A stretch of DNA of 62,345 bases, counting the filler, from an uncultured Thermoplasmatales archaeon (GTDB taxonomy: Archaea; Thermoplasmatota; E2; DHVEG-1): the NCBI GenBank assembly GCA_964517155.1. It is 4 parts of 4 records of this genome, joined end to end, with 100 filler letters (N's around TTAATTAATTAA, not from the genome) between each part and the next. Parts side by side here need not be neighbours in the genome. Positions count along the whole stretch, not along the records: positions 43,701 to 57,570 come from CAZFAZ010000074.1; 3 more parts are not named here. The stretch is one strand, 5' to 3'. Positions 45,001 to 57,000 of this stretch are shown in pieces (the stretch's first letter is position 1; each line of letters opens with the position of its first letter). The position numbers were made by a program.

Positions 45001-48000
45001 GAAGCTATTTGTCGTACATGATTATTATCATTTGAATAGTAGTCTAGGCTTGGATAATATTCATATTCAAGTAAACTAGATTCTTCGTTCGTATTGTTGA
45101 TAAACCAATTCTGAGCAAGAGACAGTCTACTCAGAAGCATTTTTGTATCAATTTCAGCTTCGTCTAGTAAAATATTATAGCGGTATAAATCAATTATTTC
45201 ACCTGTTCTATAGCCTAAAAATGTAGTAGTATCATATGTATAGATATCAACTAGTTGATTAGTATAACATTCAACTGGCAAACCTGCTTTTAAGCATAGG
45301 TTTTTAAGGGTATTAATAAGATCATAACCACTTGTTATAGGAACCGATTCTTTATAGTAAGCATAGTTGTTACCACTTTTAATTTCTATTGCATTAATTC
45401 CAAGTGCTATCTGTTGATTTAAAGATTCTAAAGGCTCAACATAAGTAGCATATTTTATTTCTTTTTTATTATACATAAAAGTAAATACCAAGGAAACAAA
45501 TTGCGTTTCATTTTGTTCAAGGGTGTTTCCAAACCTGTCATCTTCAATGGATTCAACAACTGCTTCAGATATATCTAGATAAACTCTGTTTTTTGTTGTT
45601 TTGTTGTTGCTTCCACTTTGACACCCATGGATAGAAGAATTTTTCAAAATTGTTATATATAATCTTTCATAGTCTTGTTCAAAAGATATTTTTGGGAGTT
45701 CCGTGGCCTGTTGTAAATCATTTTTAAAATATGCGTCAATTATGTCGTAGGCATAGTTCAATAAAACAGTTTTTTGATTTTTAGAAATTTCAAAAAAATT
45801 TGTTTCAGAAGAATCAACTGGTTGTTCTTCATATGGACAATATAAGCATGTTATAGATAAAATAATTAATATTAGTGATACTAATATGCAAAATATCTTT
45901 TTGTTTTTTATTTTTTTAAAGAAAAATAAAAAAAACAAAATAAAGATAGATATGCCTGCTAGAAAAATCAATACAAAAAAAGTATTTGAAAATAATTTGT
46001 TTTCTCTGTAGTTTGAAGAATCATTTTTATCTGAGAGTTCTATATACTCTCCAGATACATGAAAATCAATTGATTCTTTTATATTTTCTTTAGTAATTCT
46101 TTCAAAAGTAAAAAGAGTATAATATCCACTAGATGTATTTTTTACTACTGCAGCAGGTAAATATTTAAAACCATAATCATCAAATTTTTCTTTATTTTCG
46201 GTATATCTTAAACGCGATATTGTTATTTTGTCACCATAATATTGTTCTATCTCATCTATTATTGGTTCTTTTTGTATACAGCTTGGGCAACTATCGGAAT
46301 AAAAAAACTCCAATACAACATTGTCCGTTGTAGTAATCTGCGATTGTTCTGCTTGTACATCTTGATTAAAAAGAAAAGCTGTAGTAAGTTGTAAAGATAA
46401 AAATATTAGGATGATAGTAAAAAAGATATATTTATTCATGAGTTTAATAGTCATATACTTTAGATATAGAAAGGTTTACTTTTAATGGTTTTTATTTTTG
46501 TTTTTTTAAAAAAAGATAATAAAAAATAAAGAGAGCTGATTATGTGTAAATATCTCTTTTTTATACACCAGATACAACTACCGTAAATATCGCAGGTACG
46601 CCAGATTGGTATTGAGCATCCCAAACAATAACAGTTTCTTCATACGATGCTACATATTTAGCATCATATGGTGAAATGCCAGCATTATAATTTAACAAAG
46701 TTTCTGCGCCATCTAGTGATTTTATTATAATAGTAATACCTACGGTATCTGGTAGATTAAATGTCTGTTTCATTGTTTCATGAGTTATTGTTTTCATTGC
46801 ATTTATTTTATATATGCTAAGCATAGGTAAGGGATCGCTTTCTGTTGCTTTCCTTGCTTTGGATGAATCTTGTACTGATTCATCGTATCCTCCAACTACG
46901 TAATTATTTTGGTTATGGGCAATAACATAATCATCATTGAGTTTGACAAGATATGTATGATATACCTTTGTCTCCATGTTATATGTTGGTACTCTTTCAA
47001 ATATTTTTTCTATGGATGTAACATAAGCTTTATCAGCAAATAAATCACCTGTGTTTAGATCACCTGCTGGTATCCATTGTCCATTTACATATAATAGATG
47101 ATCTGGCGTTACTTTTAGTTCATTGTTAAGAACTAAATAGTGATCTGTTATCATTTGATCGGGTGAATCGTGGAAGACTTCTTCGACTTCATCGACTGTA
47201 ATAATCTGGTTTTTTTCGTCAAATGATTTAATTAAGTCTCCAATTTGTAGGTCTTCTATGTTTTTTGTTGTTCCGTCGGCCATTAGTATTTGGCTACCGG
47301 AAAGGAAACAGGTACTAGCTTGTTGTGAACCTCCTGGCAACATATCATCAATTGTTCCTCCTGCTGCAGGATTAGTTGTTTGTGTTGTTTGTGATGTTTG
47401 TGTTAGCCCAGTTGCTTGTTGTTGACCCGTGGCACCAGAATCCGTTGGACAGCTACAAGCAAAATGCCCGGAAGTTCCGACCAGACTATTCGGCGGACAC
47501 CACACCATAGGTGCTCCTCCAGCGCAAGGACCTTCCGCCTCTTGTCCACCTAAATACTCAGGGCCATTAGGGTCATCATCATCTGGATACCATGGATTAT
47601 ATGGGCCTGAGCCATCATCTGAAGAGTTCACGATAACAATAAGAGGTGCAGACCAATCACTAACATTACCACAAGGATCCTTGGCTCTTACAGTAACACC
47701 ATAGCTCCCTATACTATTCCAAGTATGTGATCTACTACTAAGCCCCCATCCACTAAATCCTGTTCCATCATTCCAATTAAATTGATATACTAATTTGTCA
47801 CCATCAGGATCAGTTGTTGATGCAGTGTAAATATAAGAAAAACCTTTTACTGCATTAGTTTCACCCTGAGGCACCCCTGGAATATTTGGAGGATTATTTA
47901 TATCGCATTCACCCGCAGGAATACTATCCTCTTCATATTCATCAGGAGAAATAGATACCAAAGACGTATCTACAGGTGTTTCATCTGGATCTAATCCAAG

Positions 48001-54000: not shown

Positions 54001-57000
54001 CAATCGCTTTGCAGACCCTCACCATCTATTGCTTTTGCTCTAATCTCATAGATGCCTGCTTGAGACCAACTATGCTCTTGAACACTTCCTCCTTCAATAT
54101 ACGTTCCATCACCCCATGAAAAATTATAAGAAGAGATTCCACCACCGCCCGAAGGAGCTGCAATAAAACTATAGAGGGTGTCATTATAATAAACATTATA
54201 AGAACCAGTAAGCGACGGCGGATTTGGAGGATTATTTGAAGAGTCCAATATCGCTGAAGCAGTAGATGCTGCACCATATGGTTTTGCATTACTACCATCT
54301 GACTCTTGCCCTCTATCATTTGCGATTGACCATGCTTTGTAATAATATACGCTATTCGATGATAGTCCTGTATGAATAGTACTTGTTCCACTAAATATAC
54401 CAAGGTCTCCACCCGGCACTATAGTTCCAGATCCTTTGTTCCATGGAATGGGCTCAGAATCTTGAGAATATTCTATATATACTTTGTCTCCCCCTGTTCC
54501 ATGTGTCCATGAAAGCATTACCTGATCTGTATCAGCAGTTGCACTAAAACTTAACAAGGCAGCAGGTTTAGTAAGAAAATATTGTTCAAGACCAAAACTA
54601 CATCCAATACGATTACAAGCCACTGCATAATAACGATAATATGTTCCTTCCGATAATGAAGAAATTGATGTAGAATAAGCACCTGTATCAAAGTAACCAG
54701 TTTCAGATTCACACTCTTCTTCTATCAAACCACCAGTATAACATATTCCCCTAGAAAATCTTTCCTCTGAACCAATAAAAAGAATATTGCCTCTACCAAT
54801 GAATGTAGTTTCACCAACATCACCAGATTGAATTACTTCTGTAGTAACTAGTGGATATTTCGGTTTTTCTGGCGCTGAGTTATGAGTAATAATATCATCT
54901 GCAATAAAAGTGCCATATTTCATATCTACAAAATTATAAGTAAGATAATTGCCCTCAAATGATACAATGTCCAGCACTTCAACCACATCTAGTTCATCCT
55001 TAGAATTTAAACAAAAAAGAAAATCACCAATCTCAATTATACCTGCACCCATCTCCAACTCATCCAAACCACTAATAGTACACCACCCCTTACCACTCAC
55101 AAGAAAAGGATGATTAGCTGTAGGTTTCAAAACCTTACCATCGCTAAGTAAAATCTCATGAACATTATCATGCCAAATTGTTTGCAAACGCACCACAGGA
55201 GCAATCTCAACAATACTAGTCTCTTCATTAAAAACCTTAACCAGATCACCAATAACAATATCTTCAATATTTTTATAAGATCCATCCGCCATATTAACAG
55301 GAGTACCTGGCATAAAACATATTATCACTTCTTGACCTATAGCCGTAAGTTGATATTTTTCATTTTCAACATAATCTATTTCAATTCCATACTCCATATC
55401 ATTATGACCAAAAGCATCTTTTGCATTCGGATTAAAAGTAAATAAGTTATGAAAGTTATAAAAAATATCAAAAAGTGCGTTTTCTAAATAACCTAAATCT
55501 GATTTAACTAAGAAGCCATCAGCAAAATATACATTACAAGAAGAAAGTTTTAGATCATAGGTAATCTTTCTTTCGTATTCTTTTTCAACTGAAAAGATAT
55601 TAACCTCGTTTAAATTCTCATTAGTTAAATAATCACCAATTCTAATTTGTTCAGCTGAAACCCATTCATTATTAACATAGAATAAATGATTAGGAGTAAC
55701 ACAAACGTTTCCATTTAAAACGAGGTAATAATCATACATAAGGCTTTCATTATAAATCAATAGCTCTTCAACCTTATCTTCAACAAAAATATCCTTATTA
55801 AAATCATAAGATAAAACTACATCTCCGCTTTTAATAAACTCAATATTTTTATAACTACCATCAGCCATTAAAACCTGAGTACCTGAAAGAAAACATGTTG
55901 TTTCTTCAAACCAATAAACTTTTGCATCATTTAGTTGACCTTTTGACATATGTATATCAATTTGATTTTCAGCAAGATCTGATACATTGAATTCATAACC
56001 CTCATCAAATGAATACATGAGTAATAGCTTGTCCCCACTTGACTCTATATCAATGGAGCCATCTTCATTAAAAATATCTTCAATTCTAATTGAATCAGCT
56101 CCATCTGTAGCCAACTTTTGCAAGATTTCATCTAAAGAAGAAAACTCACCGGCTATTGCCTCACTTCTATTTTTTGCTTTTTCACTTTCAATATAAGGCA
56201 ATCCCCATAAAAGAATAGAGGTAATACTAGAAAAAAAAATAATAAGAACCAAAATAAGCGAAAAAACAGAGCTAACTGCATCTTTTCTTTTCTTCAGATT
56301 CATTAATACATCCCCATCCATTAACATCTCTAATTTTAATTTAAACAATACCTCATTTTTATACTCCTGTAACCAGAAATTTGAAGATAAACCATGTAAT
56401 TAAAACCATGATAAACATATGTTTAACACCAGCAACAATTTTGCCATCTTCAAATACACCTGTTACAACACCCATACCTGCGCTTTGAAATATAGCTGCA
56501 ACAAAAAATGCAAAAGTAATATCATACTGAGTTATAGTTGAAGATCCACCCATTGCACCTGAAAGACCACCTGAACCAGGACCAAGCATAGCAGGAACCA
56601 AACTTTTACATAAAATAACTATAATTAAAAGAAAAACAAACATACCAACATAAACAACTGCAACATAAGAAAGCATACCTGCACGACGTTCAGATTCAAT
56701 AAGTTTAAGCTCTCTTGCATCCCTTGATGCTGCATCAAGAACATCTGCAACATTTCCACCACTGCGGCTTGCTTCAATAATCAGAGAAACAGTTCGACGG
56801 ATAAGCTTAGTATTAACACGTTTTGCAAAAGATTCAAGTGCTTTTTCAACACTATTACCCCAAGAAATCTGACGAGCAATATTTTGAATTTCAGGCGTAA
56901 GAAGACCATAATTGCCTTTTGAAGCAGCCATAATAGTCTTTGTAAAAGTCATACCCGCACGACGAGACTCAGCAAGATCACGTACAAAATCTGGAAATCT

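Follow-up and report, generated by a model that had tools for sequence, protein, structure and literature searches.

The window analysed here, a stretch of 62,345 nucleotides from an uncultured Thermoplasmatales archaeon, is made up of four contigs with runs of N between them, and one of these, a 13.9-kb contig at positions 43701-57570, bears a type IV pilus-like operon; the DNA past position 57570 is not contiguous with this contig. Two genes of the operon are TadC-like, and six encode proteins whose N-termini resemble class III signals; these signal peptides are assigned from motifs and family membership. In order along the window, the genes of interest are:

44115..46454, minus strand: neighbour protein, signal-anchored, thioredoxin-like (CPSC) and AMMECR1, 779 aa
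46561..48267, minus strand: g01401, pilin-like protein, 568 aa, with signal/helix, PKD, low-complexity linker, Hint and conserved C-terminal domain
48408..48908, minus strand: g01402, small pilin-like protein, 166 aa, hydrophobic N-terminal segment after QRNDG
48905..49378, minus strand: g01403, small pilin-like protein, 157 aa, N-terminus MNDSA/QLQVLEAVIVAG...
49375..51327, minus strand: g01404, 650 aa, class-III-like N-terminus, DUF7266 and DUF2341
51324..53156, minus strand: g01405, 610 aa, Hint-less paralogue of g01407, DUF7289 and PKD
53307..56348, minus strand: g01407, modular pilin-like protein, 1013 aa from a TTG start, with signal, pilin module, Hint A, linker, Hint B, Ig/Fn3-like modules, PKD and C-terminal domain
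56359..57291, minus strand: second TadC/FlaJ-like platform gene, 310 aa, Pfam T2SSF at 2.3e-22
57298..57570, minus strand: 3' end of the first TadC/FlaJ-like platform gene, which starts on contig C52

The ATPase genes of the operon reside on C52, which overlaps this contig (C74). The 99-nt overlaps given in the preliminary description between the ends of C74 and C52 and between those of C63 and C25 are exact, and at the C52 end there are two FlaI-like ATPases together with a FlaJ/UpsF-like gene, of which the first part is present. Across the former overlap the first platform gene reads as a single 287-aa frame, the C52 part of which matches ArlJ/FlaJ and UpsF models; the NCBIfam ArlJ/FlaJ and UpsF scores of the second platform gene fall below cut-off. 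A Peptidase_A24 gene is present in the genome. The N-termini quoted earlier and the DUF7266 match of g01404 are correct. No match to Pilin_N (PF07790) was seen in the operon's proteins, among which DUF7289 is above cut-off in g01405 only, and neither g01402 nor g01403 has a Pfam match. Three other genera keep the order of the operon with Hints at the same places, and both small pilin-like genes are conserved in these three syntenic loci; in two of the three, thioredoxin-like homologues lie inside the operon, and the 779-aa thioredoxin-like/AMMECR1 protein could be an accessory of it. For DUF2341 proteins of archaeal pilus loci, to which g01404 may be compared, PMC4858521 discusses a possible role as tip adhesins. 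Searches of the two other genomes of the genus (88% and 83% complete) did not recover the operon as a whole, and it is therefore accessory, or unassembled, in these two. With fair confidence, we take the six pilin-like proteins of the locus, two of them small and four large and "modular", to be the subunits of a type IV pilus-like filament of euryarchaeal kind.

Two of the large proteins carry Hint domains. Those of g01401 and its C-terminal part are:

46912..47310, minus strand: g01401 Hint, residues 320-452, with Cys320, T387-PD-H390 and H451-N452 followed by Gln
46564..46911, minus strand: g01401 C-terminal part (453-568), which opens with the conserved xxxY-xxGGY[DE]E and continues through a disordered stretch into an alpha/beta domain at 480-568

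The reading frame, Pfam matches and motif positions previously given for g01401 were all recovered (Hint at 315-412, 40.9 bits against a cut-off of 29.7; PT-HINT at 328-452, 34 bits against 27.7; STC/FLSGSQ, VTPDH and VIAHN/QNN). The domain sits between the low-complexity linker and the conserved C-terminal domain, and within the orthogroup (18 sequences) C320, T387, H390 and N452 are invariant, as are Y456 and E463 behind it. No other segment is as well conserved as the Hint, with a median identity of 55% versus 27-31% in the flanks. In the predicted fold (pLDDT about 85-89), the Hint superimposes on the bacterial intein-like (BIL) domain 2lwy with Z 19.7 and rmsd 1.4 over 128 aa. Residues 480-568 are modelled with pLDDT 77-83, and the C-terminal part has no Pfam match; the models of g01401 and g01407 have pTM values of 0.33 and 0.48, respectively. 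It may be that the pilin "head" of g01401 is its C-terminal domain, in which case a simple cut would split the subunit.

For g01407, the earlier reading frame and PT-HINT match (residues 160-279, 45.8 bits) stand, but its size of 1004 aa (start 56321) becomes 1013 aa with the TTG start, and a second Hint was found in addition to the one reported:

55896..56276, minus strand: N-terminal pilin module, residues 25-151 (~127 aa), after the putative class III cleavage site KKRKDA/VSS
55497..55895, minus strand: Hint A, residues 152-284, with Cys152, T218-PN-H221 (TPNH) and the end FLVKSD, without His-Asn
54879..55319, minus strand: Hint B, residues 344-490, with Cys344, T410-AN-H413 (TANH) and THN490 followed by Ser491
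53310..53861, minus strand: C-terminal beta-rich domain, approximately residues 830-1013, by alignment, common to g01405 (pLDDT about 78-90)

In the predicted model, the self-contained pilin module is built from a long helix at 12-82 and six strands at 87-147, with pLDDT 74-90, and this unit ends at Hint A, which begins directly behind it. The N-terminus of g01405 is homologous to this module, which 21 relatives conserve and which DUF7289 profile positions 2-65 match with E 0.039; the g01405 counterpart of the C-terminal domain gives a weak match to positions 109-203 of the same profile. A point against a processing step is that g01405 has the same N- and C-terminal domains and no Hint, which shows that this family of host proteins works without cleavage. 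Hint A is predicted with pLDDT 80-93 (2lwy Z 19.9, rmsd 1.5 over 130 aa), and is 48-60% identical to five orthologues, against 22-42% for the flanks of g01407. It had been described as lacking a clear HN, and this holds not only for Hint A but for all six members of the starred clade to which it belongs. Hint B, which falls in a starred clade of eight, matches Intein_splicing and TIGR01445, is poorly modelled (pLDDT 25-50), and with its Ser after THN contradicts the former statement that no nucleophile follows HN; S, C or T occupies +1 in six of the seven copies of its subtype. The two Hints of g01407 are of different mechanistic types.

A profile built from nine local Hints identified the type-A BIL 2lwy_A as the best solved relative (E 5.6e-17, full length), followed by 8w20_A, a PT-HINT-bearing protein (1.6e-16), and the Tetrahymena BIL2 entry 6y75 (2.8e-14), with canonical inteins at 6e-9 or weaker. 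The predicted folds of the g01401 Hint and Hint A likewise gave BIL2 Z 18.4-19.6, and inteins and Hedgehog 14-18.5. In 221 near-complete related copies from 152 proteins, Cys1 is found in 202, TxxH in 216 and HN in 205 (91-98%). These data support the earlier proposal that the Hints of g01401 and g01407 are BIL-like, and presumably self-processing, modules in pilin-like surface proteins. They also bear on the possibility that the domains no longer process anything and serve as structural or binding modules, like AXH/Hint-like folds. Such a role would suit Hint A, with its lost HN, the 19 and 16 of 221 copies in which Cys1 or HN, respectively, is absent, and the degenerate copies found in a giant protein of this genome and elsewhere. 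In Hint A and the five relatives closest to it, however, Cys1 and TxxH are retained in spite of the loss of HN, and this, along with the invariant catalytic residues of the g01401 orthogroup and the conservation across the family, makes us regard inactivity as improbable.

The giant protein is the third carrier named in the preliminary description: its PT-HINT (1684-1795) and the 32 aa shared by two pieces that join to 2882 aa were seen as reported, and further degenerate copies without Cys1 have to be added. Its main Hint has Asp at +1. We also considered whether all of these domains could be ordinary selfish mini-inteins that splice without trace and without a role for the host, as RtcB of the same genome does hold a true mini-intein, and Hint B, whose subtype mostly keeps S, C or T at +1, possesses every canonical residue (Cys1, TxxH, HN, +1 Ser). 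Only 14 of the 205 copies with HN, however, have C, S or T at +1, the other 191 including those of g01401 and the giant protein; Hint A has lost its Asn, an endonuclease domain is absent, and the profile is nearer to BIL 2lwy than to inteins. Moreover, the Hints lie at linker or module borders of variable, non-essential surface proteins and not at conserved sites of housekeeping ones, keep a constant place across genera, and are conserved more than their hosts, and their tree clusters by host context (45 label changes versus 101.7 when shuffled, a measure inflated by relatedness). We therefore find it unlikely that selfish splicing explains them.

The association with pilins extends beyond this locus. 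Among the 149 closest cluster representatives, a regular expression found pilin-type N-termini in 71 (43 and 25 archaeal-like, 3 bacterial), of which about 2-3 appeared doubtful by eye, while 9 more had been missed; the distance from the start of the hydrophobic core to Cys1, taken over 50 pilin-type proteins, has a median of 114 aa (100-138). At E<=1e-6, Hints were detected in 45 of 100 other family genomes sampled, with up to 20 per genome, compared to the 27 of 45 and up to 15 first given, and the open frames of up to 4650 aa were confirmed. Of 265 genomes sampled from the phylum outside the family, 3 match: one of the 4 from a family within the same order, and two of the 9 from a family within the same class. 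Relatives also occur in DPANN archaea, CPR and other bacteria, and the same Hint clade is present in prepilin-type proteins of bacteria as well as in pilin-like proteins from other archaea. The domain, though concentrated in this lineage, is hence not restricted to it, and the term "lineage-specific tag" was too narrow.

All 52 pilin-type Hint proteins scanned, as well as the three main copies of this genome, match PF07591 PT-HINT, and such domains in polymorphic toxins are described as lying immediately before the toxin domain, which they release (PMC3482391). The Hints could in this manner be pretoxin peptidases that free a C-terminal toxin from a surface stalk, a reading in line with the architecture of 8w20_A (a 1368-aa protein with its Hint near the C-terminal part) and with the ~1100 aa without domain assignment behind the Hint of the giant protein. 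No toxin family was found, however, in g01401, g01407 or the giant protein, nor among the 25 commonest partner families of the 52 pilin-type proteins, which are PKD, Big_9, cadherin-like, Laminin_G_3, BACON, DUF2341, DUF7289 and others. The part of g01401 behind its Hint is conserved, not polymorphic, in 18 orthologues, no small immunity-like gene follows g01401 (the next gene encodes the 779-aa thioredoxin-like/AMMECR1 protein), and the C-terminal domain of g01407 is shared with its Hint-less paralogue. The suggestion that the C-terminal parts are toxin cargo hence finds no support in pilin-type proteins, whose partners are adhesin-like, and we give it little weight.

We rather favour, and believe it reasonably probable, that these proteins are pilus subunits with Hints of the BIL kind at module boundaries, processed after export. 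To judge from the sequences, the Hints probably cut the pilin-like protein at the border between its pilin part and its adhesin cargo, their most likely role being autoproteolytic cleavage, possibly with ligation. Type-A BILs are reported to cleave, and possibly splice, without a +1 nucleophile, and type-B BILs, which lack block G, only to cleave (PMC4031507, PMC7765530). From the motifs and this known chemistry we infer the activity, its timing and the fate of the products. Following export and removal of the class III signal by the genome's A24 prepilin peptidase, the Hint would fold outside the cell, and Cys1 would attack the preceding peptide bond (N-S acyl shift) to form a thioester. In g01401, which resembles type-A BILs in having Cys1 and HN with Gln at +1, the terminal Asn could cyclise and cut the C-terminal junction as well, so that the Hint would be excised and the flanks separated or, less efficiently, ligated via the new amino group. 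With its Asn lost and its end KSD, Hint A could make the N-terminal cut only, which would free the pilin module from Hint and cargo, the thioester being resolved by water or another nucleophile. Hint B, with HN and Ser, has the full set of residues for true splicing. Overall, the subunits would mature after export, their pilin module being separated from, or joined again to, the bulky Ig/PKD adhesin-like cargo. We found no paper linking Hint or BIL domains with pilins, in agreement with the novelty proposed at the outset.

The closest known system is the type-A BIL of Clostridium thermocellum (PDB 2LWY), which is the best match in both profile and fold and has in common with these Hints Cys1, TxxH, a C-terminal His-Asn and the missing +1 nucleophile; type-A BILs likewise reside in variable regions of secreted, non-conserved proteins (PMC4031507, PMC7765530, PMC2814812). 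Here, by contrast, the host is archaeal, a pilus operon encodes the carrier (a type IV pilin-like protein that has a class-III-like signal), the domain keeps a fixed place where pilin and cargo meet, and there are a Hint A clade without Asn and a Hint B subtype with a +1 nucleophile. With the pretoxin HINT (PF07591), the pilin Hints share a Pfam family above cut-off and, as predicted here, the logic of a self-cleaving module on a surface stalk that frees the C-terminal part (PMC3482391, the text of which has no occurrence of "pilin" or "type IV pil"); they differ in that toxin domain, immunity gene and polymorphic C-terminus were not found, and the cargo is Ig/PKD/adhesin-like. The second-best fold match, BIL2 of Tetrahymena BUBL (PDB 6TMM/6Y75), forms an isopeptide bond from its thioester to a lysine of other proteins (PMC8616854), and Hedgehog Hog transfers its N-terminal flank to cholesterol (PMC7765530). 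Both thus hand the N-terminal flank from a thioester to another nucleophile, and although the ubiquitin-like flank and the sterol-recognition region are absent here, they offer a precedent, not evidence, for a possible fate of the Hint A thioester. As for the pili themselves, the pair of ATPases and the pair of tadC-like genes in this locus agree with what PMC4858521 says of euryarchaeal clade 2 loci, and the same paper notes large DUF2341 proteins (DUF2341/PilY1-like tip proteins) in archaeal type IV pilus loci. Modular type IV pilins such as PilB of Streptococcus sanguinis similarly have a bulky functional module grafted behind an N-terminal pilin module and expected at the filament tip (PMC8179133, whose text and part of whose supplements, Dataset S1 perhaps incompletely, contain no match to Hint or intein), but unlike these pilins and tip proteins, those described here hold in their linker a Hint that is predicted to process itself.

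The window, from an uncultured archaeon, is made up of four contigs (C68, C71, C74 and C81) with runs of N between them, and the Hint-bearing pilin-like genes described here lie on C74 (window positions 43701-57570, 13,870 b). The 99-nt contig-end overlaps of the preliminary description hold up as exact and unique per contig end: the right end of C74 equals the right end of C52 over exactly 99 nt, C63 and C25 are joined likewise, and among 34 such links in the assembly there is no other at those contig ends. All genes of the locus are on the minus strand, as follows.

57298-57570, minus strand: TadC/FlaJ-like gene 1, with its start on C52; 287 aa when joined, with ArlJ/FlaJ and UpsF matches on the C52 part
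56359-57291, minus strand: TadC-like gene 2; 310 aa, T2SSF (2.3e-22)
53307-56348, minus strand: g01407; 1013 aa, two Hints, Ig/Fn3-like modules and PKD
51324-53156, minus strand: g01405; 610 aa, DUF7289 and PKD
49375-51327, minus strand: g01404; 650 aa, DUF7266 and DUF2341
48905-49378, minus strand: g01403; 157 aa, without Pfam match
48408-48908, minus strand: g01402; 166 aa, without Pfam match
46561-48267, minus strand: g01401; 568 aa, PKD and Hint

Upstream of TadC-like gene 1, C52 also encodes a pair of FlaI-like ATPases (938 aa and 635 aa), and the genome has one Peptidase_A24 gene, located on C7. In the first ATPase (locus L005 6559-9375, plus strand, C52) the FlaI match covers residues 461-922 only, with about 450 N-terminal residues outside it. 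According to passages of Makarova et al. 2016 (PMC4858521), large DUF2341 proteins are encoded in archaeal pilus loci, one locus of Aciduliprofundum has two ATPases, and many clade-2 loci have two tadC-like genes; these features match the locus, so the pilus machine itself is of an already catalogued kind. A signal-anchored thioredoxin-like protein with a CPSC motif (window 44115-46454, minus strand; L016 11816-13069; L018 17843-19111) adjoins the pilin operon or sits within it in 3 of the 4 compared loci, the window copy being fused to AMMECR1, and this neighbour could act outside the cell to keep the cysteines of the Hints reduced. Elsewhere in the window, on C81 and hence on a separate contig from the pilus locus, positions 57818-59275 (plus strand) encode a protein of 485 aa whose N-terminal parts are Myb/HTH-like and which carries a LAGLIDADG_2 endonuclease domain (4.6e-28); it looks free-standing.

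The preliminary description had given g01407 a single Hint, when the protein in fact carries two: Hint A (residues 152-284), with Cys152, TPNH and an FLVKSD end where relatives show ILVHN, and the overlooked Hint B (344-490), with Cys344, TANH, THN and then Ser491. In g01401 the Pfam Hint match spans residues 315-412 and PT-HINT 328-452, with Cys320, T387-PD-H390 and H451-N452 followed by Gln, while a giant protein of 2882 aa holds one complete Hint across the C63/C25 join (DAC/FLAGTQ ... TPNH ... LVHN/D) and additional degenerate copies without Cys1. The terminal HN that had been claimed, with a reservation for g01407, is present as AHN in g01401, as THN in Hint B and as VHN in the giant protein but not in Hint A, and the claim that no nucleophile follows it is correct for g01401 (Gln) and the giant protein (Asp) but not for Hint B. 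The HN dipeptides at residues 300 and 315 of g01407 were ruled out as the end of Hint A, as they are absent from orthologues. The last 1100 aa of the giant protein (L002 2-3328, plus strand, C25) have degenerate Hints between acidic low-complexity stretches, and one degenerate copy starts with GGGFTKGTMIKMADG, without Cys1, and ends with YFADDILVIGS. Mutual identity among the surface Hint copies is 40-51%, and Hint B is 32-35% identical to these.

By HMM search, the sole other Hint in the genome, and the sole classical intein-like copy, is that of RtcB (L003 3084-4955, minus strand, C23), a true mini-intein with C1, TSEH and SN followed by Cys, placed in a conserved enzyme. This intein serves as a contrast to the surface copies, which, were they selfish mini-inteins themselves, would have to function with the +1 nucleophile missing in g01401, the giant-protein copy and Hint A, Ser491 of Hint B being the only one present. 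Nor do they occupy a conserved host site: they are found in low-complexity linker and among variable modules, with flanks at 22-42% identity vs 48-60% for the Hint.

Both profile and fold comparisons place these domains closest to bacterial intein-like (BIL) domains. A profile built from nine Hint copies, local and syntenic, was searched against all PDB sequences, and the results are listed below together with the structural alignments.

Profile matches and VIA-align structural alignments of the Hint domains
2lwy_A, 'bacterial intein-like domain', full length: E 5.6e-17 (best profile match)
8w20_A: E 1.6e-16
6y75/6tmm, Tetrahymena BIL2: E about 3e-14
Canonical inteins: E 6e-9 or weaker
2lwy vs g01401 Hint, VIA-align: Z 19.7, rmsd 1.4 over 128 aa
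2lwy vs Hint A, VIA-align: Z 19.9, rmsd 1.5 over 130 aa
BIL2, VIA-align: Z 18.4-19.6
Mini-inteins, VIA-align: Z 14-18.5
Hedgehog (1at0), VIA-align: Z 16.3-16.7

As whole proteins the AlphaFold models are poor (mean pLDDT 65.6 and pTM 0.33 for g01401, 62.8 and 0.48 for g01407); within the Hints pLDDT is 80-93, but 25-50 in Hint B, which only one other alignment row covers. Foldseek ranked both BIL entries at the top for the g01401 and g01407 models, and the best 50 rows of the full-length-model fold searches held matches to the Hint, PKD and Fn3/Ig parts only.

Searching with the g01401 Hint retrieved 7477 cluster representatives at E<=1e-3, of which 1375 passed 1e-10 and 126 passed 1e-30. A motif census was taken over 152 proteins, namely the 149 best matches besides the window's own protein, to which the sequences of the window and a few others were added. 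In their 221 near-complete Hint copies, Cys1 is present in 202, TxxH in 216 and HN in 205, and the +1 residue is Cys, Ser or Thr in only 14 of the 205 HN copies, with another residue in the remaining 191. This agrees with the defining pattern of type-A BIL domains, Cys1, TxxH and HN without a +1 nucleophile, as laid out in passages of PMC4031507 and PMC7765530. The g01401 Hint and the giant-protein copy are type-A on motifs (Cys1, TxxH, HN, +1 Gln or Asp), and from sequence rather than observation we infer that such type-A BIL-like Hints would be capable of autocleavage or splicing. In a FastTree Hint tree of 146 columns, in which many forks are unresolved and label sharing is partly due to relatedness, one starred clade of 6 unites Hint A, the relative P0066 and the four syntenic orthologues, and another, of 8, holds the Hint B subtype (DMxYGTFxADDIxTHN; S, C or T at +1 in 6 of 7 copies). 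FLV[KR]SD is the ending of Hint A and of the 5 copies closest to it; all 6 members of their clade are without HN, with Cys1 and TxxH kept, so the Asn was lost a single time. On motifs Hint A would pass for a type-B BIL or Hedgehog-like domain, since it retains C152 and TPNH and has KS in place of HN; however, as it nests among HN-bearing copies, it is better regarded as a derived type-A relative that would be type-B-like in its working and not by descent.

With regard to the pilin character of the subunits, all six genes (g01401 to g01405 and g01407) encode N-termini in which a short charged stretch, Gly/Ala and a long hydrophobic segment can be read from motifs. Pilin_N (PF07790) has no match among the operon proteins and matches other ORFs of the genome, on C90 and C88. 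The DUF7289 match of g01405 reaches 38.6 bits and the DUF7266 match of g01404 29.4 bits, and the N-terminal positions of DUF7289 overlap the Pilin_N-positive ORF on C90. An Atlas look-up with residues 1-150 of g01405 returned DUF7289 and Pilin_N clusters at scores of 0.80-0.82, which are leads only. Pilus context is given by the adjacent T2SSF genes, the FlaI-like ATPases beyond the contig join and the A24 peptidase in the genome. In the g01407 model, a helix at residues 12-82 is followed by six strands at 87-147 that end just before Cys152, and the N-terminal module so modelled is pilin-sized. Its paralogue g01405 shares both the N- and C-terminal domains and is devoid of a Hint; the DUF7289 profile aligns collinearly with the two ends of g01405, at positions 2-86 (above cut-off) and about 110-203 (E 0.03). 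The g01401 C-terminal domain shows no homology with that of g01405/g01407 by profile-profile comparison (probability 0.3%). Right after the g01401 Hint (46564-46911, minus strand), 3-4 variable residues precede an invariant Tyr and GGY[DE]E, kept in orthologues, and then comes a disordered stretch, followed by an alpha/beta domain without Pfam match.

The association between Hints and pilin-type N-termini extends well beyond this genome. Sorting the N-termini of the 149 best representatives by regex, followed by a check by eye, gave 43 plus 25 of archaeal class-III-like type and 3 of bacterial prepilin type (GFTxxE); the check found 2-3 of these doubtful and 9 missed, so that roughly half of the 149 are pilin-type, and gene fragments and giant proteins with a Sec-like signal account for much of the remainder. 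In 50 proteins with a Hint near the N-terminus, the median Cys1 position is 133.5, a median of 114 aa (100-138) past the start of the hydrophobic core, with a median of 588 aa after Cys1. Bacterial prepilin-type N-termini (GFTLVE, GFSLQE, GLTMIE) with 1-3 same-clade Hints are seen in P0026, P0039 and P0042, and at loci L034 and L036, with examples in Planctomycetia and Omnitrophota MAGs. Three other relatives (P0034, P0078 and P0057) are almost wholly head-to-tail Hints (7, 4 and 5-6 copies, respectively) with linkers of 0-3 residues; in these arrays Cys1 of a copy falls at position +1 or +2 of the one before.

The commonest partner families in 52 pilin-type relatives are PKD (16-17 proteins), DUF7289 (11), Big_9, cadherin-like, Laminin_G_3, BACON and DUF2341. 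These bear on whether the Hints instead release polymorphic-toxin cargo, as their match to PF07591 could imply (PT-HINT, 34 and 45.8 bits, cut-off 27.7); they also match Hint PF01079 (40.9 and 48.4 bits, cut-off 29.7). No known toxin family is matched in g01401, g01407 or the giant protein, and none is among the 25 commonest partner families of those 52 relatives, though a toxin of unfamiliar fold could escape such a search; furthermore, the g01401 tail is conserved and non-polymorphic and no immunity-like neighbouring gene was seen. Passages of Zhang et al. 2012 (PMC3482391) place HINT directly ahead of the toxin, and pilins are mentioned nowhere in the paper.

The gene order g01407-g01405-g01404-g01403-g01402-g01401 is kept in three loci of other genera (G056, G013 and G029), each with a Hint in both end genes. 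In 18 g01401 orthologues C320, T387, H390, N452, Y456 and E463 are invariant. The Hint is in fact the best-conserved segment of both end proteins: for g01401 it has a median identity of 55% vs 27-31% for the flanks (17 comparisons), and in g01407 it reaches 48-60%, vs 30-42% for the N-module, 32-36% for the C-domain and 22-26% for the middle (5 comparisons). At E<=1e-6 Hint matches occur in 45 of 100 other family genomes and in neither of the two genomes of the same genus (G005 and G044; 88% and 83% complete). The absence from these congeners had been noted before, and it concerns not the Hints alone, as the whole subunit operon was not found there: g01404 gave no match and g01407 matches almost solely by its PKD part. 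These two genomes are for that reason uninformative as natural Hint-minus alleles, and the locus may be accessory, or difficult to assemble, in the genus. A phylum sample gave 18 of 35 family genomes, 1 of 4 in one same-order family, 2 of 9 in one same-class family and 0 in the remaining families. A species-genome scan yielded 420 relatives from 617 candidate stretches, the best 80 of which are foremost from Thermoplasmata-type MAGs, next from other archaeal MAGs (DPANN included), CPR bacteria, Elusimicrobia, Omnitrophota and Planctomycetia, and last from Streptomyces and Paenibacillus; the Omnitrophota and Planctomycetia relatives have N-termini like bacterial prepilins.

In a literature search with subscription journals outside its scope, we found no paper joining BIL, Hint or PT-HINT domains with pilins or class III signals, and none on DUF7289, DUF7266, PF23960 or PF23928. 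Intein and Hint terms are absent from three pilus papers (PMC4858521, PMC13705601 and PMC8179133) and from the 29,359 characters searched of the PMC8179133 supplements. If our reading is correct, a self-cleaving or self-ligating module at the border between pilin and cargo would represent a post-export maturation step undescribed for type IV filaments, with possible uses in cargo freeing, subunit trimming for filament fit or covalent attachment, and the range of BIL-type domains, known in bacterial secreted proteins, would widen to surface appendages of archaea. The connection is a recurring one: pilin-type proteins, a few bacterial prepilins included, make up about half of the Hint clusters closest to ours. 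Such short, nucleophile-independent Hint domains might also be useful protein-engineering parts.

Pilins pack non-covalently in type IV filaments, and bulky 'modular' pilins are thought to be located at the tip because their cargo is too large for the shaft. As described in passages of PMC4031507 and PMC7765530, Cys1 of BIL domains and inteins becomes joined by a thioester to the residue before it and, with HN, Asn cyclisation severs the C-terminal junction; BIL domains without a +1 nucleophile give mostly cleavage products and some ligation via the freed amine. Presumably the same chemistry operates in these pilin-like proteins, where Hint A would carry out the thioester step only and splicing would be possible for Hint B. 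Because Cys1 is kept and Asn lost in g01407-type subunits, a C-terminally activated pilin module might even be handed to an outside nucleophile, although we regard such use of the thioester for transfer, and not mere cutting, as an unlikely outcome suggested by analogy. Transfer to a lysine on an adjoining subunit would cross-link the tip of the archaeal pilus covalently and without ATP; transfer to a group on a surface bound by the Ig/PKD cargo would result in covalent adhesion. In a milder form of this reading, adhesin cargo would be carried outward by the pilus and released by the Hint on a timer or redox trigger, in which case the exported thioredoxin-like neighbour would maintain Cys1 in reduced form. 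A precedent for transfer from a g01407-type thioester would be Tetrahymena BIL2, the N-terminal flank of which is transferred to lysines of other proteins according to a passage of PMC8616854, and the reaction could likewise be compared to that of Hedgehog, where transfer is to cholesterol.
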